From Candidatus Latescibacterota bacterium (lineage in GTDB: Bacteria; Latescibacterota; CBDEFO01), in assembly GCA_965248755.1 (NCBI GenBank), contig OZ252149.1, positions 3,936,001 to 4,000,000 of the forward strand: DNA of 64,000 nt, written 5' to 3'. A program made the translations under genes and the position numbers. Positions 9,970 through 40,979 of the stretch are shown in pieces (the first letter of the stretch is position 1; each line of letters starts with the position of its first letter). The notes beneath the pieces were generated by a model. It was not told the DNA's origin. It was given only the letters and a program-made list of their open reading frames with translations, and made no database searches.

Positions 9970-10023
9970 TTCTCGTCATACCGCTCCCCTTGACAGAGCG
10001 ACAAATATTTCGCAAATTGGGGT

Positions 10024-21285: not shown

Positions 21286-21615
21286 TTGAGAAGGGAGGTC
21301 AAGGTGTCGAGCCCCGAAGTGAAAGATGGTAAGCGCTGGACGGCGACCCGTAAGGGAGAGATTGTGTTGGCTCTTTTGAGAGGAGCAGATCTATCTGAGG
21401 TGTGTCGTAAGAATGGAATTAGCCAGTCGCAGGCGTATGCTTGGCGTGATAGTTTCTTAGAAGGGGGCCAGGAGAGTCTGAAGTCTCGGCGTGGTCGCAA
21501 GGATCCGAAGGAGCGAGAGGTTAGCCGGTTGGAGCGCAAGGTAGGGCAGTTGACGCTCCAGTTGGAGATACTCGAAGAGGTAGCCCGTCTAAAAAAAACG
21601 AAGCGGTTGCCTTGA
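21286..21615 (+). CDS. IS3 transposase OrfA
   Basis: Translation identical to 10024-10353. Confidence 0.9.
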   Translation: MRREVKVSSPEVKDGKRWTATRKGEIVLALLRGADLSEVCRKNGISQSQAYAWRDSFLEGGQESLKSRRGRKDPKEREVSRLERKVGQLTLQLEILEEVARLKKTKRLP

Positions 21616-22475
21616 GTGGGCGGTTTTTGGGTCGAGGCTATTCCCGCAAGGTGGTAGCTTTGGCTTTGGGTTTGCATCGTTCGACTCTGTATAGGTTTAG
21701 GGATAGAGGTGTCAGTTCTTCTGTTAAAGAGCCTGTGATAGATGAGGAGCTTGCTTTTCGTATTCGAGGGATACTGGACCAAGAAGAGGCATTTGGTCAC
21801 AGGCGGGTTTGGGCGCATCTTCGTTTCAAGGAAGGGGAATGTGTCAACGTTAAGAAGGTTCATAGGATAATGAAGCTTAAGGGGTGGCAGTGTAAGCTGT
21901 GGAATCGTCCCGGGAGAAAGGGGCCACAGGTTGCCCAGAAGCGTTCTGTGGTGGATAGTCCCGACAGTTTGTGGTCGAGTGACTTGACAAAGATTTACTG
22001 TGGAAAAGATGGTTGGTGTCCTCTTATTGCGGTGGTGGACAACGGAAGCCGGGAGGTTCCTGGGTATCGTTTTAGTCGAAAAGGGAGGGCACTGGAGGCC
22101 ACAGATGCCCTGGATCGGGCCGTGATCTCTCGATACACTTCCAAGGAGGCTGTCCCCCAGGGTCTCACTTTGCGCTCTGACAATGGTTCCATCTTTTTGG
22201 CTCGGGCCTATTTGGCCAGTACCGAATATTGGGGAATTCGTCAGGAATACATACCAAGTGGTAAACCCGATTGGAACGGTGTTGTAGAGCGTTTTTTCAG
22301 GACCCTCAAGCAAGAGTGTGTTTGGCTTCACAAGTTTGAATCCTTTGAACAGGCTGAGAAGATCATATCTCAGTGGATCGATAATTACAACAAGAACAGG
22401 CTTCATTCATCCCTGGGATATAAGACCCCAAAAGAGTGGAGAAAACAATTTTATCTACTACCCCAGGTTGCTTAA
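21612..22475 (+). CDS. IS3 transposase OrfB
   Basis: Translation identical to 10350-11213. Confidence 0.95.
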   Translation: MSGRFLGRGYSRKVVALALGLHRSTLYRFRDRGVSSSVKEPVIDEELAFRIRGILDQEEAFGHRRVWAHLRFKEGECVNVKKVHRIMKLKGWQCKLWNRPGRKGPQVAQKRSVVDSPDSLWSSDLTKIYCGKDGWCPLIAVVDNGSREVPGYRFSRKGRALEATDALDRAVISRYTSKEAVPQGLTLRSDNGSIFLARAYLASTEYWGIRQEYIPSGKPDWNGVVERFFRTLKQECVWLHKFESFEQAEKIISQWIDNYNKNRLHSSLGYKTPKEWRKQFYLLPQVA

Positions 22476-22670
22476 TTGGTGTCGCTTTCCTGGGAAGCAG
22501 TACAGCCTGAGATAGCCTTAATCCCTTAATCACCTTCCCGACCTTACTATTCCTTTAACCATTAAATAATGCTTGCAGACAAGCTTGTCATACTTTATTA
22601 TAGAGAAGCAGTAACGTCCAAAGTAGTTATAGAGGGGACCACAGGTTAAAGACAGGTTAAAGGAGTAATA

Positions 22671-23977: not shown

Positions 23978-25584
23978 ACCCGAAAAATGGTTGTCAAAGT
24001 CGCCAGAACATGTTATATTACAATAAATAAGACTCATAAATGGCGGATAAATATTGATCATCCAGAGGGTGAAAGAATGAAAGTAGGTTTTGATGGAGGA
24101 ATAAAGCTTGAATTTCATGGTGCAAAGGTGACATCAAACGGTGGACTTCTTGCGTATCGTGACCTTGATTACGCACTGGGATTATTTGATTCGGTATCAG
24201 CGGTTTTTACCGATAAACGCACAGGCCGTAATATCCAACATGATATATCTACTCTCCTGCGTCAATCGATATACAGCCGTCTTGCAGGATATGAAGATGT
24301 AAATGACGCCGAGCGATTATCCGTTGATCCCGTCATGCGAGCGATTACCGGAAAGAAGGACAAAGGCAGGCAAGCTGCCAGCTCCAACACGATAGGACGT
24401 TTTGAAACTGATATACTGACTCAGCATGACAATCTCAGAAACTTGTCAGATATCAATGGCAAGTGGGTTCAAAAAGCGATGAGTAAAACACAGCATCAAC
24501 GAATCATTCTGGACATGGACAGTTCGGAGAGTCCGGTACATGGCCAGCAGGAAGGATCAGCTTACAACGGTCATTTCGGATGTACCTGTTTTCATCCAGT
24601 GTTCTGCTTCAATCAGTTCGGGGATTGTGAAGGAGTCCTACTTCGCTCTGGTAATGTTCACAGTGCTGATCGTTGGAAGGAAGTTCTGGAACCGATCGTC
24701 AAGAGATACGAGAGCAAGAAGAATAGGAAATACTTTCGAGGCGATGCTGCATTCGCAAAGCCTGAGATTTATGATTATCTGGAGGGAAACGGCTATTTGT
24801 ATGCCATTCGGCTTCCCGCAAATGAGATACTCTATGAAAAGATACGATACCTGCTGACTCGGCCAGTTGGACGACCGCCGAGGAAACCGATTGTATCGTT
24901 ATATGAATTTCAATATAAAGCGGCCAGTTGGGATCAATCGAGGCGAGTGGTCGCCAAGGTTGAATGGCACCAAGGGGAGTTATTCCCAAGAGTGGGATTT
25001 ATCGTGACCAACATGAGCGCCAAGCCAGAAGGCGTGGTACACTTCTACAATGGCCGTGGCAGAGCTGAGCAGTGGATTAAGGAGGGCAAGTATGCTCTGA
25101 ACTGGACCCGACTCTCATGCAAGCGTTTCGTCTCCAATCAGGTGAGGCTCTGGCTGTTTGTTCTGGCTTACAACTTGGGCAACTTCCTGCGACGTTTTGT
25201 TCTTCCGAAGAAAATCAAACACTGGTCACTACGCAGCCTCCTCGTGAAATTTATCAAAATCGGAGCGAAGATTGTCAGACACAGCGGATATATTACGTTT
25301 CAAATGGCTGAGGTTGGGATAGACAAGAGGTTATTTGCCGAAATATTATCCCGGATTGAACGATTGCGATGTTATTCTGTTTAAACTGCCACATTTTTTT
25401 GTGAGTCGATGGAGAGGTGTCTCTAATTGGAGGATTTAAACACAAAGAAAGTGATAATTCAGAGGAAAATACTATTTTAATTGAAAAAAGTACTTGTTGA
25501 AAAATGTAAAAGTGGTAATATTAATTCAGAAACAAGAATGTATCGAAATATAATCCCTCATGAATGTGATATGGGGAATGTCGG
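23959..25584 (+). mobile_element. IS1380-family insertion sequence
   Basis: IRs CCCCCATTCGCCATAT / ATATGGGGAATGTCGG enclose a DDE transposase. Confidence 0.9.
23987..25384 (+). CDS. IS1380-family transposase (DDE_Tnp_1_4); true start probably near 24077
   Basis: LEFHGAKVTSNGGLL, GYEDVNDA, ILDMDSS, FRGDAAF, YNGRGRAEQWIKEGK. Confidence 0.92.
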   Translation: MVVKVARTCYITINKTHKWRINIDHPEGERMKVGFDGGIKLEFHGAKVTSNGGLLAYRDLDYALGLFDSVSAVFTDKRTGRNIQHDISTLLRQSIYSRLAGYEDVNDAERLSVDPVMRAITGKKDKGRQAASSNTIGRFETDILTQHDNLRNLSDINGKWVQKAMSKTQHQRIILDMDSSESPVHGQQEGSAYNGHFGCTCFHPVFCFNQFGDCEGVLLRSGNVHSADRWKEVLEPIVKRYESKKNRKYFRGDAAFAKPEIYDYLEGNGYLYAIRLPANEILYEKIRYLLTRPVGRPPRKPIVSLYEFQYKAASWDQSRRVVAKVEWHQGELFPRVGFIVTNMSAKPEGVVHFYNGRGRAEQWIKEGKYALNWTRLSCKRFVSNQVRLWLFVLAYNLGNFLRRFVLPKKIKHWSLRSLLVKFIKIGAKIVRHSGYITFQMAEVGIDKRLFAEILSRIERLRCYSV

Positions 25585-27621: not shown

Positions 27622-27650
27622 TTGACAAACATTAAAACATTCCGTATAAT
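27622..27650 (+). promoter_or_regulatory. Perfect-consensus sigma70 promoter upstream of the tandem-array operon
   Basis: TTGACA-N17-TATAAT; a second TTGACA at 27581. Confidence 0.8.
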
Positions 27651-27919: not shown

Positions 27920-28585
27920 ATGAAATGGGTTTTGAGTTTATTATCCCTGATCGCTTTTATGCTTCCAAGATTCGTCAACGCCTCATCTTTGCTTCCTTTG
28001 GAGCTTGAGCAAGGGATCAATGAAGTCTCTATCACTGTAGTAAACCAAGGAGAGGCCGATCTCACAGCATTAGCTATAAATGTAGACAAAAAGGCGTTAC
28101 CTCAATGGATGAGGATCTTGGAGACGTCGAAGAGGATCTCAGTTCCTAGGATGTCGAAGGGATCACAGAAGCTGATATTGAGAATCGAAGTGATAGACGC
28201 TCCCCCAAACGTGCCCTTCGAGTTGCCTCTGATTGTGAATGATGTCTCGGAGGGAAACTGGGAATTCAAGGTGAACACAAAAACCTCGCTTGGCGTCCCT
28301 ACCTCGTATGAACTTTCTCAGAACTACCCCAATCCCTTTAATCCAGAGACAACGATTCATTATGCACTGGCCCATAAGGGGCCCCTGCCCACTCTGTTGG
28401 CGATCTACAATGTTTTGGGTCAGCAAGTGAAGACATTGGTGGATGAACCTCAGACAGGCGGTTTCTATTCCGTTCAGTGGGATGGAAAAGACGATGATGG
28501 AGGAAAGGTGTCCAGCGGTATCTATTTCTATAGGCTTGTCTCTGGCGAATTTGCCAAGACCCAGAAGATGCTTTTACTGGAATAA
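27920..28585 (+). CDS. Secreted protein with an N-terminal Ig-like region and a C-terminal FlgD-Ig/T9SS-like sorting domain
   Basis: Signal peptide; LSQNYPNPFNPETTI...IYNVLGQ...WDGKD...SSGIYFYRL...KMLLLE. Confidence 0.8.
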   Translation: MKWVLSLLSLIAFMLPRFVNASSLLPLELEQGINEVSITVVNQGEADLTALAINVDKKALPQWMRILETSKRISVPRMSKGSQKLILRIEVIDAPPNVPFELPLIVNDVSEGNWEFKVNTKTSLGVPTSYELSQNYPNPFNPETTIHYALAHKGPLPTLLAIYNVLGQQVKTLVDEPQTGGFYSVQWDGKDDDGGKVSSGIYFYRLVSGEFAKTQKMLLLE

Positions 28586-28599
28586 AGGAGGTGCGAAAG

Positions 28600-29136
28600 A
28601 TGAAATCCAAGAGCGCTCGACGAAGTGTATTAGTCACCCTCTTTTTAGCGACGTTGATGGGTGTTTTGTTCCAGACGTCGCAGCAGAGTGAGGCGCAAGT
28701 AGTGGTTTCCGTCGAAGGTCCCAGAGAGATCGTTGTGACGATACAGGGACCATCCCTGGAATTTGTGGCGCAGAAGCAGTATGAAATCGCACTGAACTAC
28801 ATCAAACTTGGGGATCTGAAGCGCGCAGAAGAGCAGCTTAAAAGGGTGATCAATAGCTATCCCACTGCTGGGACAACTGTTTCGTGGGCAGAATATTGTC
28901 TTGCCTGGATGGATATTCACAAAGATAAATTTCATTCGGCCATAGACAAGCTTCAGGCCATCGTTGACAAGGACATCTCCAAAGATGACGAGGTATATGC
29001 CTATGCCTACTATCAGATAGGCAGGATTTACATTGCGTTCTTGCAGGACAAGGTCAAGGCTGATGCAGCTTTTGGGAAGGTGCTGGAACTCTATCCGGAT
29101 TCAAAACCTGCGAGGCGGAATTTCTGGCTTAAGTAG
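28600..29136 (+). CDS. Secreted TPR protein (YbgF/BamD-like), copy 1
   Basis: Signal peptide; TPR helices AQKQYEIALNY...VINSYP and AYAYYQIGRIY...VLELYPDS; AAGGAGGT RBS. Confidence 0.8.
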   Translation: MKSKSARRSVLVTLFLATLMGVLFQTSQQSEAQVVVSVEGPREIVVTIQGPSLEFVAQKQYEIALNYIKLGDLKRAEEQLKRVINSYPTAGTTVSWAEYCLAWMDIHKDKFHSAIDKLQAIVDKDISKDDEVYAYAYYQIGRIYIAFLQDKVKADAAFGKVLELYPDSKPARRNFWLK

Positions 29137-29233
29137 GGATGAGGAAAATCCAGAGGTGGCATTACACTCAACGATGATTGGAGAGCTAAGTCACAACAAG
29201 CTTTTCCAGATAACCCAAGGAGGTGTGTGCTTT

Positions 29234-30412
29234 ATGAAAAAGTCCAGATGGACAACTTGGATCTGTTTGCTGTCAATAGTCTTCGTCTTTGCCGGAGATG
29301 TGAGTGCGGCCCCACCGTACAGTATTACTCTGACTCACATCAAGTTCGACCACAACACGGCCAGCAACAGTACGGATGGCGTTACCATTAAAGAGAATGA
29401 GATTGATATTACGGCGCCTGAATGGGTGACAGGAGGTGCCAATGATCCTGTCTGCTATATAAAAGGTTCGAACAAGACGATCAAGGTACGCTTTACATGC
29501 GACGCGGATTGGGTGACCAGCGCTCAGATACTGGCGACCAAGACTGCCGGGTCTATCCTGACGAATATTGCGGAGACGACAGTCACCTTCTCGAATGGAG
29601 TGTCCAGCCCTGAATATCAGGACTTCACACTCACGAGTGTGCCTACCAATGTGAACAAATCGACAGCACTAAGGTGGCAGTGGAAGGAAAAGTATCAGGG
29701 AAATAACTATAATATCACTTCAACCGGGCCTCATGAGATCTACGTAATCCTTGCAAGCCCTCAGGCCCCACAGGCCACACCATGGGCTGAGGCCCTTTCT
29801 GTAGCCTGTGGCTATGCGGGTGGAGCGAGTACAGCCGCTCAAGCGACGGATTATTTTACATTTAACTTGCTTTTTGATGCGACGTTTGGCTACGATACTG
29901 TGAATGGAGCAGCATCATATACTACCAATGGAAAAGGGACAAACTTCTGGCTTGATGATTTCTTGACTAACTTTAATGGTAGTGGTGGGGATGTTAATTG
30001 CTATGACATGGGGAAAGCAGTCAAGACTTTTGCGAACGCATTAGGGTGTAATGCGTTGTATAAGTATGTTCGCTCCTTCGGATATGTCAATTGCATAAAA
30101 CCGACCGGCGAAGCGTGGACCAACAACCCTTTCCATGACAATTCTAGTTGGTCTGATACTCTTATTGTCGGAGAAGACGATGATTCTACAGACGGAAGGT
30201 CTAAGTTTACGAATCATTCCTTCGGGGCAATCGGAGATGATGTTTATGATGCCCTAATGTCGGTAGATAATGATGCGAATCCTGATGCCGCCCCGCACAG
30301 CGAGTACTATCTGACGGGAGTTGCTTGGAGTACCTACAAAGGCTTGGTGAAAGACGACGATCCTGCCTATACAACCTCTACTCCTGAAACTTGGAGCTTC
30401 ATCGTACAGTAG
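29234..30412 (+). CDS. Secreted protein with a transglutaminase/papain-like Cys-His-Asp domain, copy 1
   Basis: Signal peptide; VNCYDMG...ANALG, FTNHSF and VYDA in triad order. Confidence 0.6.
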   Translation: MKKSRWTTWICLLSIVFVFAGDVSAAPPYSITLTHIKFDHNTASNSTDGVTIKENEIDITAPEWVTGGANDPVCYIKGSNKTIKVRFTCDADWVTSAQILATKTAGSILTNIAETTVTFSNGVSSPEYQDFTLTSVPTNVNKSTALRWQWKEKYQGNNYNITSTGPHEIYVILASPQAPQATPWAEALSVACGYAGGASTAAQATDYFTFNLLFDATFGYDTVNGAASYTTNGKGTNFWLDDFLTNFNGSGGDVNCYDMGKAVKTFANALGCNALYKYVRSFGYVNCIKPTGEAWTNNPFHDNSSWSDTLIVGEDDDSTDGRSKFTNHSFGAIGDDVYDALMSVDNDANPDAAPHSEYYLTGVAWSTYKGLVKDDDPAYTTSTPETWSFIVQ

Positions 30413-30460
30413 TGTAGATTAGAACATCAGAACAGAAGAACTTCAACGGAGGTGAACAAA

Positions 30461-31357
30461 ATGACAAGAATCATTCTGTCACTCATACTGGTAATAGGAT
30501 TATTTGTATTGACCATACGCGATTTCGCGTTTGCACAGGAAGGGCCGACGGGTGAATCTCTAGATAAGCTAAAGGAGTTGTCCGACTTTGAAAGCTGGCC
30601 CGGGAAGACGGGTCCTGTTAGAGCTGGTGTTAGACTTTCCAAGGGTATAATTCCGATCCTGGAAGGAACTACTGACATCAGGCCAAACAGGACTCCTGGC
30701 CTATGGGGAGTAGAGAACAATCTCGTCAGGTACTGGTCCAGGTGGCAGATGGGAGAGACAATTATAACGGGACGGGAAGATTACACGGAAGATCGCGTGG
30801 AAATCTGGATTGTCGTGGCGGAGACCGCCGCAGAAGCGCACGAGTACCTTATTGAAAGGTACTTTTACACTTCACTGCCATTTGAAACACGCGTTCCGCG
30901 GCGCGATCAACCCAATGTCGCGGGAGACATCTCTTTCTTCGGAGGAAGAAAATTTATCCGCAACAACATCGTTGTTGAGATCAGTGCGAAAGGCAAGATG
31001 AAAGACAAACTGAGAGAAACTGCCGAACAAATAGACGCTCTTCTGCTGACAAGACCAACTGCAACATCCGCTGACCCCTTTAAGCCGGTGATAGAACGAT
31101 TGGAGATAGCACAGGATACTGTAGAACGGGAGAGTAAAACCAAGCTCTTCGTTGAAGCTACCGACCCCTACGGTGGCGATTTGGTATATAAATGGCGAGG
31201 AACTGACGGTGGGATCGGCAAGGATGAATCTGGCGATTACTATTACTATGCCGGAGACTTCGGTGTAAACAACCTTACTCTGAGCCTTATTGTCATAAAT
31301 GATATAGGGTTTGCTTCAAGGGCAAGCATTGGGGTCACAATAGTAGATTCTTTTTAA
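30461..31357 (+). CDS. Secreted partner protein, copy 1, truncated before the FlgD-like tail by a +2 nt insertion
   Basis: Signal peptide ending AFA; TCTTTTTAACTA versus TCTTTTACTA in intact copies. Confidence 0.75.
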   Translation: MTRIILSLILVIGLFVLTIRDFAFAQEGPTGESLDKLKELSDFESWPGKTGPVRAGVRLSKGIIPILEGTTDIRPNRTPGLWGVENNLVRYWSRWQMGETIITGREDYTEDRVEIWIVVAETAAEAHEYLIERYFYTSLPFETRVPRRDQPNVAGDISFFGGRKFIRNNIVVEISAKGKMKDKLRETAEQIDALLLTRPTATSADPFKPVIERLEIAQDTVERESKTKLFVEATDPYGGDLVYKWRGTDGGIGKDESGDYYYYAGDFGVNNLTLSLIVINDIGFASRASIGVTIVDSF

Positions 31358-31365
31358 CTACCCTC

Positions 31366-31686
31366 GTGGCCAATGAGGAAGGCACGGCTGCGGGGGCTCC
31401 TCAGGCCTTCGTTCTGGAGCAGAACTACCCCAATCCCTTCAATCCAGAGACAACGATTCATTATGCACTGGCCCATAAGGGGCCCCTGCCCACTCTGTTG
31501 GCGATCTACAATGTTTTGGGTCAGCAAGTGAAGACATTGGTGGATGAACCTCAGACAGGCGGTTTCTATTCCGTTCAGTGGGATGGAAAAGACGATGATG
31601 GAGGAAAGGTGTCCAGCGGTATCTATTTCTATAGGCTTGTCTCTGGCGAATTTGCCAAGACCCAGAAGATGCTTTTACTGGAATAA
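31366..31686 (+). CDS. Detached FlgD-Ig/T9SS-like C-terminal domain (copy 1); independent translation uncertain
   Basis: QNYPNPFNPETTI domain, out of frame with the upstream ORF. Confidence 0.45.
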   Translation: MANEEGTAAGAPQAFVLEQNYPNPFNPETTIHYALAHKGPLPTLLAIYNVLGQQVKTLVDEPQTGGFYSVQWDGKDDDGGKVSSGIYFYRLVSGEFAKTQKMLLLE

Positions 31687-31700
31687 AGGAGGTGCGAAAG

Positions 31701-32237
31701 ATGAAATCCAAGAGCGCTCGACGAAGTGTATTAGTCACCCTCTTTTTAGCGACGTTGATGGGTGTTTTGTTCCAGACGTCGCAGCAGAGTGAGGCGCAAG
31801 TAGTGGTTTCCATCGAAGGTCCCAGAGAGATCGTGGTGACGATACAGGGGCCATCCCTGGAATTTGTGGCGCAGAAGCAGTATGAAATCGCACTGAACTA
31901 CATCAAACTTGGGGATCTGAAGCGCGCAGAAGAACAGCTTAAAAGGGTGATCGATAACTATCCCACTGCTGGCACGTCTGTCTCCTGGGCAGAATATTGT
32001 CTTGCCTGGATGGATATTCATAAGGATAAATTCCGTTCGGCCATAGACAAGCTTCAGGCCATCGTTGACAAGGACATCTCCAAGGATGACGAGGTATATG
32101 CCTATGCCTACTATCAGATAGGCAGGATTTACATTGCGTTCTTGCAGGACAAGGTCAAGGCTGATGCAGCTTTTGGGAAGGTGCTGGAACTCTATCCGGA
32201 TTCAAAGCCTGCGAGGCGGAATTTCTGGCTTAAGTAG
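31701..32237 (+). CDS. Secreted TPR protein, copy 2
   Basis: As copy 1, with IDNY/TSV/KFR variants. Confidence 0.8.
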   Translation: MKSKSARRSVLVTLFLATLMGVLFQTSQQSEAQVVVSIEGPREIVVTIQGPSLEFVAQKQYEIALNYIKLGDLKRAEEQLKRVIDNYPTAGTSVSWAEYCLAWMDIHKDKFRSAIDKLQAIVDKDISKDDEVYAYAYYQIGRIYIAFLQDKVKADAAFGKVLELYPDSKPARRNFWLK

Positions 32238-32334
32238 GGATGAGGAAAATCCAGAGCTGGAATTACACTCAAGGATGATTGGAGAGCTAAGTCACAACAA
32301 GCTTTTCCAGATAACCTAAGGAGGTGTGTGCTTT

Positions 32335-33513
32335 ATGAAAAAGTCCAGATGGACAATATGGATTTGTTTGCTGTCAATAGTCTTCGTCTTTGCCGGAGAT
32401 GTGAGTGCGGCCCCACCGTACAGTATTACTCTGACTCACATCAAGTTCAACCACAACACGGGCAGCAACAGTACGGATGGCGTTACCATTAAAGAGAATG
32501 AGACTGCTATTACGGCGCCTGAATGGGTGACAGGAGGTGCTAATGATCCTGTCTGCTATATAAAAAGTTCGAACAAGACGATCAAGGTACGCTTTACATG
32601 CGACGCGGATTGGGTGACCAGCGCTCAGATACTGGCGACCAAGACTGCGGGGTCTATCCTGACGAATATTGCGGAGACGACAGTCACCTTCTCAAATGGA
32701 GTGTCCAGCCCTGAATATCAGGACTTCACACTCACGAGTGTGCCTACCAATGTGAACAAATCGACAGCACTAAGGTGGCAGTGGAAGGAAAAGTATCAGG
32801 GAAATAACTATAATATCACTTCAACCGGGCCTCATGAGATCTACGTAATCATTGCAAGCCCCCAGGAACCGCAGGCCACACCATGGGCTGAGGCCCTTTC
32901 TGTAGCCTGTGGCTATGCGGGTGGAGCGAGTACAGCCGCTCAAGCGACGGATTATTTTACATTTAACTTGCTTTTTGATGCGACGTTTGGCTACGATACT
33001 GTGAATGGAGCAGCATCATATACTACCAATGGAAAAGGGACAAACTTCTGGCTTGATGATTTCTTGACTAACTTTAATGGTAGTGGTGGGGATGTTAATT
33101 GCTATGACATGGGGAAAGCAGTCAAGACTTTTGCGAACGCATTAGGGTGTAATGCGTTGTATAAGTATGTTCGCTCCTTCGGATATGTCAATTGCATAAA
33201 ACCGACCGGCGAAGCGTGGACCAACAACCCTTTCCATGACAATTCTAGTTGGTCTGATACTCTTATTGTCGGAGAAGACGATGATTCTACAGACGGAAGG
33301 TCTAAGTTTACGAATCATTCCTTCGGGGCAATCGGAGATGATGTTTATGATGCCCTAATGTCGGTAGATAATGATGCGAATCCTGATGCCGCCCCGCACA
33401 GCGAGTACTATCTGACGGGAGTTGCTTGGAGTACCTACAAAGGCTTGGTGAAAGACGACGATCCTGCCTATACAACCTCTACTCCTGAAACTTGGAGCTT
33501 CATCGTACAGTAG
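32335..33513 (+). CDS. Secreted transglutaminase-like protein, copy 2
   Basis: As copy 1, with variant N-terminal blocks. Confidence 0.6.
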   Translation: MKKSRWTIWICLLSIVFVFAGDVSAAPPYSITLTHIKFNHNTGSNSTDGVTIKENETAITAPEWVTGGANDPVCYIKSSNKTIKVRFTCDADWVTSAQILATKTAGSILTNIAETTVTFSNGVSSPEYQDFTLTSVPTNVNKSTALRWQWKEKYQGNNYNITSTGPHEIYVIIASPQEPQATPWAEALSVACGYAGGASTAAQATDYFTFNLLFDATFGYDTVNGAASYTTNGKGTNFWLDDFLTNFNGSGGDVNCYDMGKAVKTFANALGCNALYKYVRSFGYVNCIKPTGEAWTNNPFHDNSSWSDTLIVGEDDDSTDGRSKFTNHSFGAIGDDVYDALMSVDNDANPDAAPHSEYYLTGVAWSTYKGLVKDDDPAYTTSTPETWSFIVQ

Positions 33514-33561
33514 TGTAGATTAGAACATCAGAACAGAAGAACTTCAACGGAGGTGAACAAA

Positions 33562-34785
33562 ATGACAAGAATCATTCTGTCACTCATACTGGTAACAGGA
33601 TTATTTGTATTGACCATACGCGATTTCGCGTTTGCACAGGAAGGGCCGACGGGTGAATCTCTAGATAAGCTAAAGGAGTTGTCCGACTTTGAAAGCTGGC
33701 CCGGGAAGACGGGTCCTGTTAGAGCTGGTGTTAGACTTTCCAAGGGTATAATACCGATCCTGGAAGGAACTACTGACCTCCTGCCAAACAGGACTCGTGG
33801 CCTATGGGGAGTAGAGAACAATCTCGTCATGTACTGGTCCATGTGGCAGATGGGAGAGACAATTATAACGGGACGGGAAGATTACACGGAAGATCGCGTG
33901 GAAATCTGGATTGTCGTGGCGGAGACCGCCGCAGAAGCGCACGAGTACCTTATTGAAAGGTACTTTTACACTTCACTGCCATTTGAAACCCGCGTTCCGC
34001 GGCGCGATCAACCCAATGTCGCGGGAGACATCTCTTTCTTCGGAGGAAGAAAATTTATCCGCAACAACATCGTTGTTGAGATCAGTGCGAAAGGCAAGAT
34101 GAAAGACAAACTGAGAGAAACTGCCGAACAAATAGACGCTCTTCTGCTGACAAGACCAACTGCAACATCCGCTGACCCCTTTAAGCCGGTGATAGAACGA
34201 TTGGAGCTAGCACAGGATACTGTAGAAAAGGGAAGTAGTACAAGGCTTTTCTTTGAAGCTAGAGATCCTCACGGGGGGGGCTTGGAATACATCTGGAGGA
34301 TGAACGGGGCTGGGCTTGGAAAGGATCACAATTCAGAAACTTACTACTATATTGCCAGATACGAGGTAGGTGTTAAGGAACTCACACTTATTGTCATAAA
34401 TGATATAGGGTTTGCTTCAAGGGCCAGCTTAACGGTTACAATAGTAGATTCTTTTACTACCCTCGTGGCTAATGAGGAAGGCACGGCTGCGGGGGCTCCT
34501 CAGGCCTTCGTTCTGGAGCAGAACTACCCCAATCCCTTCAATCCAGAGACAACGATTCATTATGCACTGGCCCATAAGGGGCCCCTGCCCACTCTGTTGG
34601 CGATCTACAATGTTTTGGGTCAGCAAGTGAAGACATTGGTGGATGAACCTCAGACAGGCGGTTTCTATTCCGTTCAGTGGGATGGAAAAGACGATGATGG
34701 AGGAAAGGTGTCCAGCGGTATCTATTTCTATAGGCTTGTCTCTGGCGAATTTGCCAAGACCCAGAAGATGCTTTTACTGGAATAA
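33562..34785 (+). CDS. Secreted partner protein with intact FlgD-like tail, copy 2
   Basis: Continuous ORF ending KMLLLE. Confidence 0.8.
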   Translation: MTRIILSLILVTGLFVLTIRDFAFAQEGPTGESLDKLKELSDFESWPGKTGPVRAGVRLSKGIIPILEGTTDLLPNRTRGLWGVENNLVMYWSMWQMGETIITGREDYTEDRVEIWIVVAETAAEAHEYLIERYFYTSLPFETRVPRRDQPNVAGDISFFGGRKFIRNNIVVEISAKGKMKDKLRETAEQIDALLLTRPTATSADPFKPVIERLELAQDTVEKGSSTRLFFEARDPHGGGLEYIWRMNGAGLGKDHNSETYYYIARYEVGVKELTLIVINDIGFASRASLTVTIVDSFTTLVANEEGTAAGAPQAFVLEQNYPNPFNPETTIHYALAHKGPLPTLLAIYNVLGQQVKTLVDEPQTGGFYSVQWDGKDDDGGKVSSGIYFYRLVSGEFAKTQKMLLLE

Positions 34786-34799
34786 AGGAGGTGCGAAAG

Positions 34800-35336
34800 A
34801 TGAAATCCAAGAGCGCTCGACGAAGTGTATTAGTCACCCTCTTTTTAGCGACGTTGATGGGTGTTTTGTTCCAGACGTCGCAGCAGAGTGAGGCGCAAGT
34901 AGTGGTTTCCATCGAAGGTCCCAGAGAGATCGTGGTGACGATACAGGGGCCATCCCTGGAATTTGTGGCGCAGAAGCAGTATGAAATCGCACTGAACTAC
35001 ATCAAACTTGGGGATCTGAAGCGCGCAGAAGAGCAGCTTAAAAGGGTGATCAATAGCTATCCCACTGCTGGGACAACTGTTTCGTGGGCAGAATATTGTC
35101 TTGCCTGGATGGATATTCACAAAGATAAATTTCATTCGGCCATAGACAAGCTTCAGGCCATCGTTGACAAGGACATCTCCAAAGATGACGAGGTATATGC
35201 CTATGCCTACTATCAGATAGGCAGGATTTACATTGCGTTCTTGCAGGACAAGGTCAAGGCTGATGCAGCTTTTGGGAAGGTGCTGGAACTCTATCCGGAT
35301 TCAAAACCTGCGAGGCGGAATTTCTGGCTTAAGTAG
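34800..35336 (+). CDS. Secreted TPR protein, copy 3
   Basis: Mosaic of copy 2 (VSIEG) and copy 1 (INSY, KFH) variants. Confidence 0.8.
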   Translation: MKSKSARRSVLVTLFLATLMGVLFQTSQQSEAQVVVSIEGPREIVVTIQGPSLEFVAQKQYEIALNYIKLGDLKRAEEQLKRVINSYPTAGTTVSWAEYCLAWMDIHKDKFHSAIDKLQAIVDKDISKDDEVYAYAYYQIGRIYIAFLQDKVKADAAFGKVLELYPDSKPARRNFWLK

Positions 35337-35433
35337 GGATGAGGAAAATCCAGAGGTGGCATTACACTCAACGATGATTGGAGAGCTAAGTCACAACAAG
35401 CTTTTCCAGATAACCCAAGGAGGTGTGTGCTTT

Positions 35434-36612
35434 ATGAAAAAGTCCAGATGGACAATATGGATCTGTTTGCTGTCAATAGTCTTCGTCTTTGCCGGAGATG
35501 TGAGTGCGGCCCCACCGTACAGTATTACTCTGACTCACATCAAGTTCGACCACAACACGGCCAGCAACAGTACGGATGGCGTTACCATTAAAGAGAATGA
35601 GATTGATATTACGGCGCCTGAATGGGTGACAGGAGGTGCCAATGATCCTGTCTGCTATATAAAAGGTTCGAACAAGACGATCAAGGTACGCTTTACATGC
35701 GACGCGGATTGGGTGACCAGCGCTCAGATACTGGCGACCAAGACTGCCGGGTCTATCCTGACGAATATTGCGGAGACGACAGTCACCTTCTCGAATGGAG
35801 TGTCCAGCCCTGAATATCAGGACTTCACACTCACGAGTGTGCCTACCAATGTGAACAAATCGACAGCACTAAGGTGGCAGTGGAAGGAAAAGTATCAGGG
35901 AAATAACTATAATATCACTTCAACCGGGCCTCATGAGATCTACGTAATCCTTGCAAGCCCTCAGGCCCCACAGGCCACACCATGGGCTGAGGCCCTTTCT
36001 GTAGCCTGTGGCTATGCGGGTGGAGCGAGTACAGCCGCTCAAGCGACAGATTATTTTACATTTAACTTGCTTTTTGATGCGACGTTTGGCTACGATACTG
36101 TGAATGGAGCAGCATCATATACTACCAATGGACAAGGGACAAACTTCTGGCTTGATAAATTCTTGATTGCCTTTAATGGCCCTGGTGGCGATGTTAATTG
36201 CTATGACATGGGGAAAGCAGTGAAGACCTTTGCGAACGCATTAGGGTGTAATGCGTTGTATAAGTATGTTAACCCCTTCGGATATGTCAATTGCATAAAG
36301 CCGACCGGCGAAGCGTGGACCAACAACCCTTTCCATGACAATGCTAGCTGGTCTGATACTCTTATTGTCGGAGAAGACGATGATTCTACAGACGGAAGGT
36401 CTAAGTTTACGAATCATTCCTTCGGGGCAATCGGAGATGATGTTTATGATGCCCTAATGTCGGTAGATAATGATGCGAATCCTGATGCCGCCCCGCACAG
36501 CGAGTACTATCTGACGGGAGTTGCTTGGAGTACCTACAAAGGCTTGGTGAAAGACGACGATCCTGCCCATGAAACCGGTAATCCTGTCAGTAAGAGCTTC
36601 ATCGTACAGTAG
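35434..36612 (+). CDS. Secreted transglutaminase-like protein, copy 3
   Basis: N-half like copy 1; C-half variant DKFLIAFNGP...HETGNPVSKSF. Confidence 0.6.
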   Translation: MKKSRWTIWICLLSIVFVFAGDVSAAPPYSITLTHIKFDHNTASNSTDGVTIKENEIDITAPEWVTGGANDPVCYIKGSNKTIKVRFTCDADWVTSAQILATKTAGSILTNIAETTVTFSNGVSSPEYQDFTLTSVPTNVNKSTALRWQWKEKYQGNNYNITSTGPHEIYVILASPQAPQATPWAEALSVACGYAGGASTAAQATDYFTFNLLFDATFGYDTVNGAASYTTNGQGTNFWLDKFLIAFNGPGGDVNCYDMGKAVKTFANALGCNALYKYVNPFGYVNCIKPTGEAWTNNPFHDNASWSDTLIVGEDDDSTDGRSKFTNHSFGAIGDDVYDALMSVDNDANPDAAPHSEYYLTGVAWSTYKGLVKDDDPAHETGNPVSKSFIVQ

Positions 36613-36660
36613 TGTAGATTAGAGCATCAGAACAGAAGAACTTCAACGGAGGTGAACAAA

Positions 36661-37557
36661 ATGACAAGAATCATTCTGTCACTCATACTGGTAATAGGAT
36701 TACTAGTATTGAACATACGCGATTTCGCGTTTGCACAGGAAGGGCCGACGGGTGAATCTCTAGATAAGCTAAAGGAGTTGTCCGACTTTGAAAGCTGGCC
36801 CGGGAAGACGGGTCCTGTTAGAGCTGGTGTTAGACTTTCCAAGGGTATAATTCCGATCCTGGAAGGAACTACTGACATCAGGCCAAACAGGACTCCTGGC
36901 CTATGGGGAGTAGAGAACAATCTCGTCAGGTACTGGTCCAGGTGGCAGATGGGAGAGACAATTATAACGGGACGGGAAGATTACACGGAAGATCGCGTGG
37001 AAATCTGGATTGTCGTGGCGGAGACCGCCGCAGAAGCGCACGAGTACCTTATTGAAAGGTACTTTTACACTTCACTGCCATTTGAAACACGCGTTCCGCG
37101 GCGCGATCAACCCAATGTCGCGGGAGACATCTCTTTCTTCGGAGGAAGAAAATTTATCCGCAACAACATCGTTGTTGAGATCAGTGTGAAAGGCAAGATG
37201 AAAGACAAACTGAGACAAACTGCCGAGCAACTGGACGCACTTCTGCTGACGAGACCTACTGCAGCGTCGGCCCAGCAGTTTAAGCCGGTGATAGAACGAT
37301 TGGAGCTAGCACAGGATACTGTAGAAAAGGGAAGTAGTACAAGGCTTTTCTTTGAAGCTAGAGATCCTCACGGGGGGGGCTTGGAATACATCTGGAGGAT
37401 GAACGGGGCTGGGCTTGGAAAGGATCACAATTCAGAAACTTACTACTATATTGCCAGATACGAGGTAGGTGTTAAGGAACTCACACTTATTGTCATAAAT
37501 GATATAGGGTTTGCTTCAAGGGCCAGCTTAACGGTTACAATAGTAGATTCTTTTTAA
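36661..37557 (+). CDS. Secreted partner protein, copy 3, truncated by the same +2 nt insertion
   Basis: TCTTTTTAACTA at ~37549-37560. Confidence 0.75.
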   Translation: MTRIILSLILVIGLLVLNIRDFAFAQEGPTGESLDKLKELSDFESWPGKTGPVRAGVRLSKGIIPILEGTTDIRPNRTPGLWGVENNLVRYWSRWQMGETIITGREDYTEDRVEIWIVVAETAAEAHEYLIERYFYTSLPFETRVPRRDQPNVAGDISFFGGRKFIRNNIVVEISVKGKMKDKLRQTAEQLDALLLTRPTAASAQQFKPVIERLELAQDTVEKGSSTRLFFEARDPHGGGLEYIWRMNGAGLGKDHNSETYYYIARYEVGVKELTLIVINDIGFASRASLTVTIVDSF

Positions 37558-37565
37558 CTACCCTC

Positions 37566-37886
37566 GTGGCCAATGAGGAAGGCACGGCTGCGGGGGCTCC
37601 TCAGGCCTTCGTTCTGGAGCAGAACTACCCCAATCCCTTCAATCCAGAGACAACGATTCATTATGCACTGGCCCATAAGGGGCCCCTGCCCACTCTGTTG
37701 GCGATCTACAATGTTTTGGGTCAGCAAGTGAAGACATTGGTGGATGAACCTCAGACAGGCGGTTTCTATTCCGTTCAGTGGGATGGAAAAGACGATGATG
37801 GAGGAAAGGTGTCCAGCGGTATCTATTTCTATAGGCTTGTCTCTGGCGAATTTGCCAAGACCCAGAAGATGCTTTTACTGGAATAA
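37566..37886 (+). CDS. Detached FlgD-like domain (copy 3); independent translation uncertain
   Basis: Translation identical to 31366-31686. Confidence 0.45.
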   Translation: MANEEGTAAGAPQAFVLEQNYPNPFNPETTIHYALAHKGPLPTLLAIYNVLGQQVKTLVDEPQTGGFYSVQWDGKDDDGGKVSSGIYFYRLVSGEFAKTQKMLLLE

Positions 37887-37900
37887 AGGAGGTGCGAAAG

Positions 37901-38437
37901 ATGAAATCCAAGAGCGCTCGACGAAGTGTATTAGTCACCCTCTTTTTAGCGACGTTGATGGGTGTTTTGTTCCAGACGTCGCAGCAGAGTGAGGCGCAAG
38001 TAGTGGTTTCCATCGAAGGTCCCAGAGAGATCGTGGTGACGATACAGGGGCCATCCCTGGAATTTGTGGCGCAGAAGCAGTATGAAATCGCACTGAACTA
38101 CATCAAACTTGGGGATCTGAAGCGCGCAGAAGAACAGCTTAAAAGGGTGATCGATAACTATCCCACTGCTGGCACGTCTGTCTCCTGGGCAGAATATTGT
38201 CTTGCCTGGATGGATATTCATAAGGATAAATTCCGTTCGGCCATAGACAAGCTTCAGGCCATCGTTGACAAGGACATCTCCAAGGATGACGAGGTATATG
38301 CCTATGCCTACTATCAGATAGGCAGGATTTACATTGCGTTCTTGCAGGACAAGGTCAAGGCTGATGCAGCTTTTGGGAAGGTGCTGGAACTCTATCCGGA
38401 TTCAAAGCCTGCGAGGCGGAATTTCTGGCTTAAGTAG
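37901..38437 (+). CDS. Secreted TPR protein, copy 4
   Basis: Translation identical to copy 2. Confidence 0.8.
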   Translation: MKSKSARRSVLVTLFLATLMGVLFQTSQQSEAQVVVSIEGPREIVVTIQGPSLEFVAQKQYEIALNYIKLGDLKRAEEQLKRVIDNYPTAGTSVSWAEYCLAWMDIHKDKFRSAIDKLQAIVDKDISKDDEVYAYAYYQIGRIYIAFLQDKVKADAAFGKVLELYPDSKPARRNFWLK

Positions 38438-38534
38438 GGATGAGGAAAATCCAGAGCTGGAATTACACTCAAGGATGATTGGAGAGCTAAGTCACAACAA
38501 GCTTTTCCAGATAACCTAAGGAGGTGTGTGCTTT

Positions 38535-39713
38535 ATGAAAAAGTCCAGATGGACAATATGGATTTGTTTGCTGTCAATAGTCTTCGTCTTTGCCGGAGAT
38601 GTGAGTGCGGCCCCACCGTACAGTATTACTCTGACTCACATCAAGTTCAACCACAACACGGGCAGCAACAGTACGGATGGCGTTACCATTAAAGAGAATG
38701 AGACTGCTATTACGGCGCCTGAATGGGTGACAGGAGGTGCTAATGATCCTGTCTGCTATATAAAAAGTTCGAACAAGACGATCAAGGTACGCTTTACATG
38801 CGACGCGGATTGGGTGACCAGCGCTCAGATACTGGCGACCAAGACTGCGGGGTCTATCCTGACGAATATTGCGGAGACGACAGTCACCTTCTCGAATGGA
38901 TTGTCCAGCCCTGAATATCAGGACTTCACACTCACGAGTGTGCCTACCAATGTGAACAAATCGACAGCACTAAGGTGGCAGTGGAAGGAAAAGTATCAGG
39001 GAAATAACTATAATATCACTTCAACCGGGCCTCATGAGATCTACGTAATCCTTGCAAGCCCTCAGGCCCCACAGGCCACACCATGGGCTGAGGCCCTTTC
39101 TGTAGCCTGTGGCTATGCGGGTGGAGCGAGTACAGCCGCTCAAGCGACGGATTATTTTACATTTAACTTGCTTTTTGATGCGACGTTTGGCTACGATACT
39201 GTGAATGGAGCACCATCATTTACTACCAATGGACAAGGGACAAACTTCTGGCTTGATAAATTCTTGATTGCCTTTAATGGCCCTGGTGGCGATGTTAATT
39301 GCTATGACATGGGGAAAGCAGTGAAGACCTTTGCGAACGCATTAGGGTGTAATGCGTTGTATAAGTATGTTAACCCCTTCGGATATGTCAATTGCATAAA
39401 GCCGACCGGCGAAGCGTGGACCAACAACCCTTTCCATGACAATGCTAGCTGGTCTGATACTCTTATTGTCGGAGAAGACGATGATTCTACAGACGGAAGG
39501 TCTAAGTTTACGAATCATTCCTTCGGGGCAATCGGAGATGATGTTTATGATGCCCTAATGTCGGTAGATAATGATGCGAATCCTGATGCCGCCCCGCACA
39601 GCGAGTACTATCTGACGGGAGTTGCTTGGAGTACCTACAAAGGCTTGGTGAAAGACGACGATCCTGCCCATGAAACCGGTAATCCTGTCAGTAAGAGCTT
39701 CATCGTACAGTAG
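38535..39713 (+). CDS. Secreted transglutaminase-like protein, copy 4
   Basis: N-half like copy 2, C-half like copy 3. Confidence 0.6.
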   Translation: MKKSRWTIWICLLSIVFVFAGDVSAAPPYSITLTHIKFNHNTGSNSTDGVTIKENETAITAPEWVTGGANDPVCYIKSSNKTIKVRFTCDADWVTSAQILATKTAGSILTNIAETTVTFSNGLSSPEYQDFTLTSVPTNVNKSTALRWQWKEKYQGNNYNITSTGPHEIYVILASPQAPQATPWAEALSVACGYAGGASTAAQATDYFTFNLLFDATFGYDTVNGAPSFTTNGQGTNFWLDKFLIAFNGPGGDVNCYDMGKAVKTFANALGCNALYKYVNPFGYVNCIKPTGEAWTNNPFHDNASWSDTLIVGEDDDSTDGRSKFTNHSFGAIGDDVYDALMSVDNDANPDAAPHSEYYLTGVAWSTYKGLVKDDDPAHETGNPVSKSFIVQ

Positions 39714-39761
39714 TGTAGATTAGAGCATCAGAACAGAAGAACTTCAACGGAGGTGAACAAA

Positions 39762-40979
39762 ATGACAAGAATCATTCTGTCACTCATACTGGTAATAGGA
39801 TTACTAGTATTGAACATACGCGATTTCGCGTTTGCACAGGAAGGGCCGACGGGTGAATCTCTAGATAAGCTAAAGGAGTTGTCCGACTTTGAAAGCTGGC
39901 CCGGGAAGACGGGTCCTGTTAGAGCTGGTGTTAGACTTTCCAAGGGTATAATACCGATCCTGGAAGGAACTACTGACCTCCTGCCAAACAGGACTCGTGG
40001 CCTATGGGGACAAAAGAACAATCTCGTCATGTACTGGTCCATGTGGCAGATGGGAGAGACAATTATAACGGGACGGGAAGATTACACAGAAGATCGCGTG
40101 GAAATCTGGATTGTCGTGGCGGAGACCGTCGCAGAGGCGCACGAGTACCTTATTGAAAGGTACTTTTACACTTCACTGCCATTTGAAACCCGCGTTCCGC
40201 GGCGCGATCAACCCAATGTCGCGGGAGACATCTCTTTCTTCGGAGGAAGAAAATTTATCCGCAACAACATCGTTGTTGAGATCAGTGCGAAAGGCAAGAT
40301 GAAAGACAAACTGAGAGAAACTGCCGAACAAATAGACGCTCTTCTGCTGACAAGACCAACTGCAACATCCGCTGACCCCTTTAAGCCGGTGATAGAACGA
40401 TTGGAGATAGCACAGGATACTGTAGAACGGGAGAGTAAAACCAAGCTCTTCGTTGAAGCTACCGACCCCTACGGTGGCGATTTGGTATATAAATGGCGAG
40501 GAACTGACGGTGGGATCGGCAAGGATGAATCTGGCGATTACTATTACTATGCCGGAGACTTCGGTGTAAACAACCTTACTCTGAGCCTTATTGTCATAAA
40601 TGATATAGGGTTTGCTTCAAGGGCAAGCATTGGGGTCACAATAGTAGATTCTTTTACTACCCTCGTGGCTAATGAGGAAGGCACGGCTGCGGGGGCTCCT
40701 CAGGCCTTCGCTCTGGAGCAGAACTACCCCAATCCCTTCAATGCTTCTACTGTGATTGGCTATGTGCTGCCCAGATCAGAAAATGTAAGCTTGAAGGTCT
40801 ACAGCCTCCTCGGTCAGGAGATCGCCACTCTGGTGGACGGATATCAGGAGATGGGTTCTCATCGAGTCCACTGGGACGGAATGGATAACGAAGGCCAGCA
40901 AGTTTCCTCAGGGATATATTTCTATCAGCTTCGAGCGGGAGAATTCCAAGAGACAAAGAGGATGACGCTTTTGCGATAG
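39762..40979 (+). CDS. Secreted partner protein, copy 4, with a distinct FlgD-like tail
   Basis: After QNYPNPFN it continues ASTVIGYVLP...KRMTLLR, unlike copies 1-3. Confidence 0.8.
   Translation: MTRIILSLILVIGLLVLNIRDFAFAQEGPTGESLDKLKELSDFESWPGKTGPVRAGVRLSKGIIPILEGTTDLLPNRTRGLWGQKNNLVMYWSMWQMGETIITGREDYTEDRVEIWIVVAETVAEAHEYLIERYFYTSLPFETRVPRRDQPNVAGDISFFGGRKFIRNNIVVEISAKGKMKDKLRETAEQIDALLLTRPTATSADPFKPVIERLEIAQDTVERESKTKLFVEATDPYGGDLVYKWRGTDGGIGKDESGDYYYYAGDFGVNNLTLSLIVINDIGFASRASIGVTIVDSFTTLVANEEGTAAGAPQAFALEQNYPNPFNASTVIGYVLPRSENVSLKVYSLLGQEIATLVDGYQEMGSHRVHWDGMDNEGQQVSSGIYFYQLRAGEFQETKRMTLLR

Follow-up and report, generated by a model that had tools for sequence, protein, structure and literature searches.

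The question raised by this locus is why a bacterium of the Latescibacterota should carry a cassette of three genes four times in a row, in copies that are mosaics of alternative blocks, and why two of the four copies should end one of these genes just before an export tail. The window analyzed is a stretch of 64,000 nucleotides (contig OZ252149.1, positions 3,936,001 to 4,000,000); all coordinates refer to it and all features lie on its forward (+) strand. Self-BLAST and alignment place the four-unit tandem array at 28319..40742, with units starting at 28319, 31420, 34519 and 37620 (3101, 3099, 3101 and 3123 bp) and 96-97% identical. One unit consists of a TPR protein (181 aa, Pfam TPR_6; copy 1 at 28591..29136, copies 2-4 at 31692-32237, 34791-35336 and 37892-38437), a secreted transglutaminase-like enzyme and a PknH-like/Ig partner. 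At the head of the array lies a “lead” gene of 221 aa (27920..28585) with a signal peptide-like N-terminus, an N-domain and a T9SS type A tail that makes up the opening 270 bp of the repeat. Lead and array are the sole contents of a 13.8-kb insert. A boundary comparison showed that 40719..40742 of the terminal tail is the same as 28319-28342 of the lead tail at 23 of 24 positions, and judging from the sequence this stretch is likely the first duplication junction. A perfect sigma-70-type promoter-like site (12/12 consensus match) is situated 5' of the whole cluster, at 27622..27650; of 21 sites between 27300 and 41200 it ranks first, but as chance would give 17.5, only its perfection and position are notable. 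The lead-TPR-enzyme order was also found in four relatives (L003, L004, L006, L042). Elsewhere in the genome lead paralogues, as read by eye, head cassettes with other small secreted proteins, and the genome has many tandem arrays of paralogues.

The differences between units are strongly ordered. The 151 informative sites (81, 37 and 33 for the three splits) fall into 5 runs, while none of 10,000 permutations yielded so few, the lowest permuted value being 73. In copy-1 coordinates, copies 1 and 3 are separated from copies 2 and 4 from the TPR core to the enzyme N-domain (28833..29548, 26 sites), copies 1 and 2 from 3 and 4 from the enzyme catalytic half to the partner signal peptide (29933..30513, 33 sites), copies 1 and 3 again from 2 and 4 in the partner N-domain (30652..30889, 8 sites), and copies 1 and 4 from 2 and 3 in the partner Ig/PKD domain (31106..31336, 81 sites, pS 0.46). 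A private block of copy 3 (37187..37278, 16 sites) adjoins its swapped Ig block, and private blocks are also present in copies 2 and 4. The original prediction, made from the letters of the window, had described a near-identical four-copy array with each of these splits and private blocks and had called for a recombination test; alignment and permutations bear it out on all these points. It had also pointed out that every N/C combination occurs exactly once; the pattern is there, but any two different 2:2 splits of four items produce it by arithmetic, and as evidence it does not count. One extra block of the 1,3/2,4 type consists of 2 additional bases in copies 1 and 3 at the partner shift site, separated from the Ig block by a junction of 19 columns over which all four allele pairs occur. 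The footprint of a TA-target transposon was ruled out as a source of this 2-nt indel, the pattern being without a TA duplication.

All informative sites (151/151) are explained if an ABAB array underwent two reciprocal swaps of blocks; when both are undone all 151 become 1,3/2,4, with copies 1 and 3 then 8 sites apart. The mosaic was very probably made in this way, by ordinary homologous recombination. Recombination between the two tails flanking the cassette would have given the first duplication, of which the junction is what we observe, and this tail-to-tail type of junction was seen again in an independent tandem of the related genome G044. Diverged copies A and B would have given rise to the ABAB array, in which one reciprocal exchange would have moved the enzyme C-half between copies 2 and 3 and a second the partner Ig domain between copies 3 and 4, for example by a one-unit circle looping out and then re-entering. 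The insert contains no recombinase gene, and none of the recombinase or reverse transcriptase families looked for (shufflon, recombinase cassette, DGR) was found among the 32 window proteins scanned, so ordinary ectopic recombination is sufficient. The mosaic itself is a clean yet ordinary case of exchange inside a tandem array.

The earlier idea of a recombination array diversifying enzyme and partner is supported as far as recombination among copies goes; as a purpose-built diversifier the array is conjectural. A rival reading is that selection maintains the array for reshuffling enzyme and partner domains, like polymorphic toxin loci with their orphan C-terminal cassettes. Several features are in accordance with this: pN/pS is 0.92 in the enzyme C-half (codons 234-392) and 0.10 between the TPR alleles (Fisher p 0.003), the 1,4/2,3 block is coextensive with an entire Ig domain, relatives L041, L043 and L047 have orphan enzyme C-terminal fragments and extra partners, and G044 and G016 have tandem cassettes. 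However, pN/pS does not exceed 1 and is based on 29 differences, two swaps are enough, the insert is devoid of a recombinase and the host genome is rich in tandem paralogue arrays, which leaves selection for reshuffling as a rather doubtful explanation.

What, then, does the cassette encode? The enzyme (392 aa; copy 1 at 29234..30412, copies 2-4 at 32335-33513, 35434-36612 and 38535-39713) carries a Cys-His-Asp triad, C256, H328 and D339, which is identical in all four array copies. C256 is present in 47/47 homologues and H328 and D339 in 45/47, the remaining two being gaps. Its model (pLDDT 93.6) aligns with TG2 (residues 1-432) over 284 residues with Z 14.4, rmsd 4.8 and about 10% identity, and TG2, TG3 and FXIII were the best matches both in Foldseek and in VIA, which scored Foldseek's own list of candidate folds. 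The model thus points to the sandwich-plus-core fold of transglutaminase-2, although a shared fold shows no function. With the conserved triad, the TG2-like model and the signal peptide-like N-terminus, the secreted Cys-His-Asp enzyme with a partner that had been proposed earlier is supported. The family is outside the coverage of the Pfam Transglut_core model, which matches 0/48 of its members at E 0.1. Neither the enzyme nor the partner body could be assigned to a family by searches of Pfam, NCBIfam or PDB sequences, and the clusters obtained from the ESM Atlas are unnamed, their leads to Transglut_core (0.79) and DUF7956 (0.93) being weak. With 690 clusters at E 1e-30, the family to which the cassette enzyme belongs is large; it is unannotated, and its bacterial members have the two-domain layout of animal transglutaminases.

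The partner, whose profile is unrelated to that of the enzyme, was modeled with a PknH-like N-domain (Z 8.9) and a PKD/Ig C-domain (residues 204-298, Z ~9-10). It was said to be tailed in all copies, which is correct for two of them. Partner copy 2 (33562..34785) is fused in frame to a tail scoring 36.6 bits with TIGR04183, and copy 4 (39762..40979) continues in frame into the terminal tail, which is the original one and divergent. Partner copies 1 (30461..31357, 298 aa, ORF ending in TAA) and 3 (36661-37557) stop first, at 31355-31357 and 37555-37557, and their T9SS type A tails follow in the -1 frame at 31354..31686 (tblastn frame break at partner residue 301) and 37554-37886. TIGR04183 exceeds its cut-off of 23 in the lead (38.1 bits) and in partners 2 and 4 (range of the three 36.6-38.1 bits); the same scan found no tail in the tail-less partner or the enzyme. 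The host has translocon and shuttle as well, SprA (625 bits, cut-off 200; control positive in 0/14 control genomes) and PorV (7/15 family matches above cut-off), in keeping with the tailed proteins being T9SS type A cargo.

The partner directly follows the enzyme in 9/12 GTDB loci and 7/11 metagenome loci, and in L050 the two are fused. Partners at this position are highly variable, some of them unrelated, and those outside the phylum carry no tail. Orphan enzyme C-terminal cassettes, as in L041 and L043, are absent from the array, whose four copies are whole and keep one catalytic family. Prediction of the enzyme-partner complex scored 0.59 against 0.01 for the best control, in a band into which 18/157 solved complexes and both of the passing mismatches also fall, and gives weak, predicted support to binding. 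The chances seem to us about even that the partner is a cognate inhibitor or an escort of the tail-less enzyme: it would bind the enzyme and thereby protect the periplasm and/or carry the enzyme out. In that sense the cassette hints at tail-less T9SS cargo exported by a tailed partner. The enzyme could instead be a surface or matrix cross-linker or a deamidase, with the partner as its substrate, adhesin or scaffold. The fold match to animal transglutaminases includes the N-terminal sandwich, Ig/PKD domains are typical of surface proteins and the partner can be tailed for export. Yet a scaffold or substrate is hard to bring in line with highly variable and even unrelated partners at one position, or with orphan fragment/partner modules, which the accessible part of PMC3482391 presents as typical of conflict loci, and as fold likeness alone shows no function we consider this the less probable reading, and an unlikely one.

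In partner copy 1 a putative -1 frameshift signal (31351..31396) is composed of a T_TTT tetramer (31351-31354), the stop (31355-31357) and, 6 nt downstream of the tetramer, a hairpin of 11 bp (31361-31396, -19.3 kcal/mol); copy 3 has its own at 37551-37596. Copy 2 is 2 nt shorter at this site and retains the tetramer (34452-34455) and the hairpin (34460-34495). The signal is conserved and covarying in relatives: tetramer of the Z_ZZN type, stop, hairpin and -1 tail are found together at 8/9 junctions from 5 related genomes, with the stop 74 nt (7 junctions) or 77 nt (1) upstream of the tail motif and the tetramers T_TTT (six times), T_TTC and C_CCT, all of them among the six shifty tetramers given in the available part of PMC4066793. 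Where the two ORFs overlap, Z_ZZN stands in the zero frame in copies 1 and 3, in 8/8 split relatives and in 3/3 clear held-out splits. The last come from eight held-out tail hits, of which three are -1 with T_TTT (in one the stop comes five codons later), four are in frame and one is ambiguous. In the hairpin 97.5% of cells are paired against 40-68% in slid controls, for a structure derived from the very sequences scored, and 4/11 pairs show two-sided changes (11 cells). Hairpins of split cases range from -15.7 to -24.5 kcal/mol and those of in-frame cases are weaker, -10.8 to -14.3; none of the 65 other tails in the genome has a hairpin of -16 kcal/mol or stronger at this place. By z the host genome's hairpin is the weakest (-2.0), and the relatives being kin, the 11 split junctions are not independent. 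An RNA model of the signal had no match in any of the 3 genomes searched from other groups, outside the phylum. A frameshift rule for the whole genome does not hold: of its 105 tail hits, the two array copies are the only ones with T_TTT and a stop before a -1 tail. The recurrence of the whole signal in relatives nevertheless points to a conserved programmed -1 frameshift, which the partner gene is likely to undergo. In copies 1 and 3 most ribosomes would stop and release a tail-less partner retained in the periplasm, while a fraction would shift -1 at Z_ZZN and add the T9SS sorting tail; in copies 2 and 4 the fusion would be hard-wired.

An out-of-frame tail may also be a decaying remnant, be initiated separately as a protein of 106 aa or arise when transcription slips on the T run. 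Copies 1 and 3 do have a GTG-started ORF of 106 aa, five related junctions are in frame and the T run is 4-5 long. But the valine codon of that GTG is GTA, GTC or GTT in four relatives, within the stem; the offset is -1 in each of the 11 clear splits, at a spacing that hardly varies even behind unrelated partners; T_TTC and C_CCT suit re-pairing of tRNA and not slippage on a homopolymer; and the weaker hairpins are those of in-frame junctions. Taken together, we find these explanations improbable.

It remains to ask whether the array is real. Contig depth over it is ~3-5x that of the flanks in three runs, which fits the assembled allele dosage; the runs stand for no more than one sample, which may be the source, and contig depth is no measure of copy number. 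Per assembled copy the depth is 5.96-6.18 in run X1 (flanks 4.5-5.8), 5.14-5.28 in X2 (5.5-7.2) and 1.50-1.56 in X3 (2.0), and k-mer depth per copy is flat over 11 array contigs. The comparison of array and flanks asked for in the original prediction thus puts each copy near flank level, not far below it. Of the chimeric assembly which that prediction named as its main alternative, over-expansion is made unlikely by this flat depth and the 19-column junction; the enzyme C-half swap, flanked by identical tracts of 138-149 bp and with dosage conserved, as a phasing error would give, could be such an error. The copy-specific 31-mers present in Logan contigs fit mosaic and ABAB alike, and the 1048-bp contigs are bubble-collapsed mixtures. 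That a true ABAB array, or two 2-copy strain haplotypes, were misphased or concatenated by the assembler is the least probable explanation, for although 2:2 dosage in every block is also expected from a misphased real ABAB, four-way identical tracts of at least 31 bp cover 70% of the unit and the genome's contamination estimate is 4.76%, the depth excludes a one-copy and disfavours a two-copy locus, the 19-column junction is within any read and a linked SNP 35 columns further switches with the indel, another array of four copies in this assembly follows a single tree (83/83 informative sites; more diverged and so the easier case to assemble), and the alleles agree with states in distant homologues.

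From all these results it appears reasonably plausible that the whole locus is an operon which was amplified recently and carries a T9SS-linked cassette of enzyme and partner, with array swaps, recoding and the proposed partner function combined. The array holds both frameshift-type (copies 1, 3) and hard-fused alleles (copies 2, 4). As a tentative extension, which we think has somewhat less than an even chance, the -1 frameshift may be a switch of T9SS localisation: the tail-less partner would restrain the enzyme in the periplasm, the tailed one would be exported and may carry the tail-less enzyme, and recombination would re-sort the two kinds of allele against enzyme and partner-domain alleles, tuning the ratio of retained to exported partner for each variant. 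Our literature search, in which subscription papers were mostly outside coverage, gave no account of this cassette or of frameshift-appended T9SS tails.

Among known systems, the animal transglutaminases (TG2, TG3, factor XIII) share with the enzyme the beta-sandwich, catalytic core and Cys-His-Asp set; the array enzyme differs in lacking their C-terminal barrels and in having a signal peptide-like N-terminus. Polymorphic toxins with Tox-TGase, as described in the part of PMC3482391 available, likewise pair a secreted enzyme of papain fold with a variable partner behind it, recombine between cassettes and include orphan C-terminal fragments, which here occur in relatives together with additional partners, whereas in the array the catalytic family is constant, not swapped for other toxin families, and the copies are intact. 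The KLIKK peptidases of Tannerella forsythia are also secreted enzymes co-encoded with a partner; according to the available text of PMC9890683 these potempins are cognate inhibitors protecting the envelope and small lipoproteins encoded upstream, while the array partner is downstream, about 300 aa long, of another fold and conditionally tailed, next to an enzyme without a tail. The closest parallel to the signal is the -1 frameshift of the IS3 family, for which the accessible part of PMC4066793 gives T_TTT, T_TTC and C_CCT among six active tetramers, a strong structure about 6 nt downstream and a -1 second frame yielding a fusion protein. The array gene is instead cellular and not a transposase, its -1 frame encodes a T9SS sorting domain, its zero-frame stop mostly comes directly after the tetramer, and it is known from sequence. 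Outside mobile elements few bacterial genes have a conserved frameshift, as far as the available portion of PMC5009743 tells; there E. coli copA and the type III recoding cases spa13 and yopN-tyeA make two products of different role from one gene, and in the type III cases recoding is likewise linked to a secretion system. What sets the proposed shift apart from them is that it would provide a cargo protein with its export signal. If true, this would put recoding to a new use, and a gene annotated as “frameshifted” ahead of its T9SS tail could then be a functional one.

Four direct repeats at 28319-40742, each 3.1 kb long and 96-97% identical, were aligned over columns 1-3093, and all the sequence blocks described in the original prediction were found in this alignment. 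Of 190 variable columns, 81 divide the copies as 1,4|2,3, 37 as 1,3|2,4 and 33 as 1,2|3,4, while 39 are private to a single copy. The 151 informative sites group into five runs, a number as low being reached in none of 10,000 permutations. When two reciprocal swaps are undone, one exchanging the enzyme C-half of copies 2 and 3 and the other the Ig block (the partner's C-domain) of copies 3 and 4, all 151 sites become 1,3|2,4, in line with the suggested recombination among copies; copies 1 and 3 then differ at eight sites and copies 2 and 4 at thirty-one. That every block combination occurs exactly once, which had been taken as evidence, carries no extra weight because it follows whenever four copies are split 2|2 in two different ways. 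The lead gene (27920-28585) contains the start of the repeat in its tail, and the copy-4 tail contains the end, the boundary being a 24-nt stretch with 23 of 24 positions shared; the first duplication therefore probably arose by joining of the two tails on either side of the cassette. The same tail-to-TPR junction is present in the related genome G044, in an independent tandem (locus L052, G044:C157:41000-46736) of two diverged TPR-enzyme-partner-tail cassettes, with the -1 signal in both partners. The internal tail of this tandem has higher scores against lead-type (188-282) than against terminal-type tails (153-225). From standard recombination, a one-unit circle looping out and re-entering would produce reciprocal block swaps. 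No recombinase gene was found in the 13.8-kb insert holding lead gene and array, and ordinary recombination accounts for the mosaic.

A less likely source of the mosaic is chimeric assembly. The array stretch is contained in three public runs, which represent no more than one sample, perhaps the source itself. Depth was taken from the 20 substitution-free pieces among 24 listed of 462 (4 mismatched pieces were left out) and expressed per assembled copy, after division of contig depth by the multiplicity that the assembly predicts for the 31-mers. It was near flank depth in all three runs: 5.96-6.18 against 4.5-5.8 in X1 and 5.14-5.28 against 5.5-7.2 in X2 (three array contigs each), and 1.50-1.56 (five array contigs) against 2.0 in X3, where both Ig-domain alleles have equal depth. 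These values fit about 3-5 copies and the assembled dosage, contig depth not being equivalent to true copy number. The Ig block ends 19 columns before the frameshift indel and 35 before a linked SNP, distances covered by any read, and the presence of all four allele pairs there supports this junction indirectly. For the enzyme C-half swap, which has identical tracts of up to 138-149 bp at its borders, wrong phasing is a possible explanation. Another array of four copies in this assembly, though more diverged, conforms to one tree at 83/83 informative sites. Altogether the block mosaic is most likely real. The cassette is missing from the only same-genus genome, where 1.6 kb separates the two flanking regions (95.9% and 94.6% identical). 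The studied genome has many tandem paralogue arrays of 80-100% identity (G000:C1 1893330-1907912, 431425-434780 and 1577056-1582573, among others), and the two checked each follow essentially a single tree. In the fragmented genomes G005, G010, G016, G031, G039 and G044, most cassettes sit at contig ends or close to them, a placement expected from array collapse or breakage there.

The original prediction placed a tailed partner in every unit. This holds for copies 2 and 4; in copies 1 and 3 two additional bases create a stop just ahead of the tail, leaving it in the -1 frame. The tail exceeds the cut-off for T9SS type A, the enzyme lacks such a tail, and the genome encodes SprA and PorV; T9SS tails are described as directing cargo to the T9SS translocon (PMC10994853). 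Among nine partner-tail junctions, from five of the eight phylum genomes with enzyme homologues, eight are split, the partner reading frame closing with a stop and the tail continuing in the -1 frame, and one is in frame. In the split junctions, whose partners are highly divergent and in some cases seemingly unrelated, the stop comes first, 74 nt (seven) or 77 nt (one) from the tail motif. A Z_ZZN tetramer precedes the stop in all eight (T_TTT in six, T_TTC and C_CCT in one each), and all three are among the six tetramers for which activity in E. coli, given a stimulator on the 3' side, is reported (PMC4066793). About 6 nt past the tetramer begins an 11-bp hairpin of -16.4 to -29.2 kcal/mol (-19.3 in the array). 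With a structure derived from these same sequences, 97.5% of cells in an 11-row alignment are paired, against 40-68% in slid controls, and two-sided changes are seen at 4 of the 11 pairs. Of 65 other tails in the genome, none has a hairpin as strong as -16 kcal/mol at this offset, the median being -6.4. A covariance model gave 24 matches in 151 genomes: 13 training or own copies, three weak non-tail matches and eight new tail matches, of which three are -1 with T_TTT (one with its stop five codons later, within the hairpin), four in frame and one ambiguous. In-frame cases have weaker hairpins, with no enzyme upstream in the three whose context was retrieved. Separate initiation of the tail at a candidate GTG is unlikely because this codon is GTA, GTC or GTT in four relatives. 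Copies 2 and 4 retain tetramer and hairpin, 2 nt closer, and as their sequence reads a -1 shift would meet a stop after five codons and give a tail-less form. A conserved frameshift appears to add a secretion signal, and one array carries both alleles. The literature searched, of incomplete coverage, gave no case of a frameshift-appended T9SS tail. A frameshift that seems to append a secretion signal is a more surprising and testable result than the mosaic.

The enzyme, without a sequence match in Pfam, NCBIfam or PDB, belongs to a large family (690 clusters at E 1e-30). Structurally, its model (pLDDT 93.6) aligns with transglutaminase 2 over the sandwich and core (Z 14.4, rmsd 4.8, 284 aligned). 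C256 is present in 47/47 homologues and H328 and D339 each in 45/47; all three are the same in the four copies. Within the phylum, 8 of 168 genomes have homologues. Between alleles, the TPR gene differs mainly at silent positions (pN/pS 0.10), whereas pN/pS in the enzyme C-half is 0.92 (Fisher p 0.003, small counts), a pattern which, given those counts, may reflect relaxed or diversifying selection. Orphan enzyme C-terminal fragments and extra partner genes follow intact cassettes in L041 (6795-10717), L043 (2396-3401) and L047 (1729-3505), and the L041 fragment begins at the linker joining sandwich and catalytic domain.

The partner combines a PknH-like N-domain (Z 8.9, which is middling) with an Ig/PKD C-domain (Z 9-10), and the latter corresponds to the 1,4|2,3 block. 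The partner gene follows the enzyme in 9/12 GTDB loci (eight by tblastn, seven by profile) and 7/11 metagenome loci, and in L050 the two are fused. The predicted enzyme-partner complex scored 0.59, against 0.01 for the best of three controls; runs share at least 76% of contacts and partner pLDDT is at least 78. The score mark is reached by 116/157 solved complexes and 2/215 mismatches, passes at 0.60 or under comprising 18 solved complexes and both mismatches, so that the model hints at a complex. Partners outside the phylum lack the tail. Locus L091 (G044:C145) has five tailed genes in tandem without the enzyme, two of which are homologous to the partner and joined to the tail in frame.

Two 1267-bp elements in the window (9976-11242 and 21238-22504) are 100% identical, with an ORF of 397-408 aa without a Pfam match and many identical copies genome-wide, one window copy adjoining an FG-GAP repeat gene (8359-9969); the element is probably an active IS. 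An IS1380-type transposase (DDE_Tnp_1_4; 23987-25384), upstream of a dicarboxylate symporter, is not at the corresponding place in same-genus genome G001. A primase-polymerase gene (Prim-Pol, PriCT-1; 1162-3723, minus strand) suggests a mobile element at the window's left end. At 42101, within an aquaporin-like gene, one base is missing from one X1 contig but not from X2, possibly an error. The genome has five lead-gene paralogues (36-41% identity; G000:C1 2910418, 3036789, 997248, 1260502 and 992389). Downstream of four of them lies a long protein (611-675 aa, all of one family), and after it come variable small genes that look secreted, one being NlpC/P60-like by eye. This arrangement suggests a second cassette family with the tailed lead at its head.

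Around the observed array, blocks, junctions, folds, gene order, T9SS tail, host machinery and conserved signal, a mechanism can be proposed. A promoter-like site at 27622 would drive a single operon, and signal peptides, read by eye, would take all products to the periplasm. Frameshifting would give two partner forms, retained and exported, and the partner may bind the enzyme as inhibitor or escort. Among the closest parallels are the frameshifts of IS3-type elements, which resemble the array's putative frameshift, recoding in copA and type III secretion (PMC5009743), polymorphic toxin loci (PMC3482391) and the KLIKK/potempin pairs (PMC9890683).
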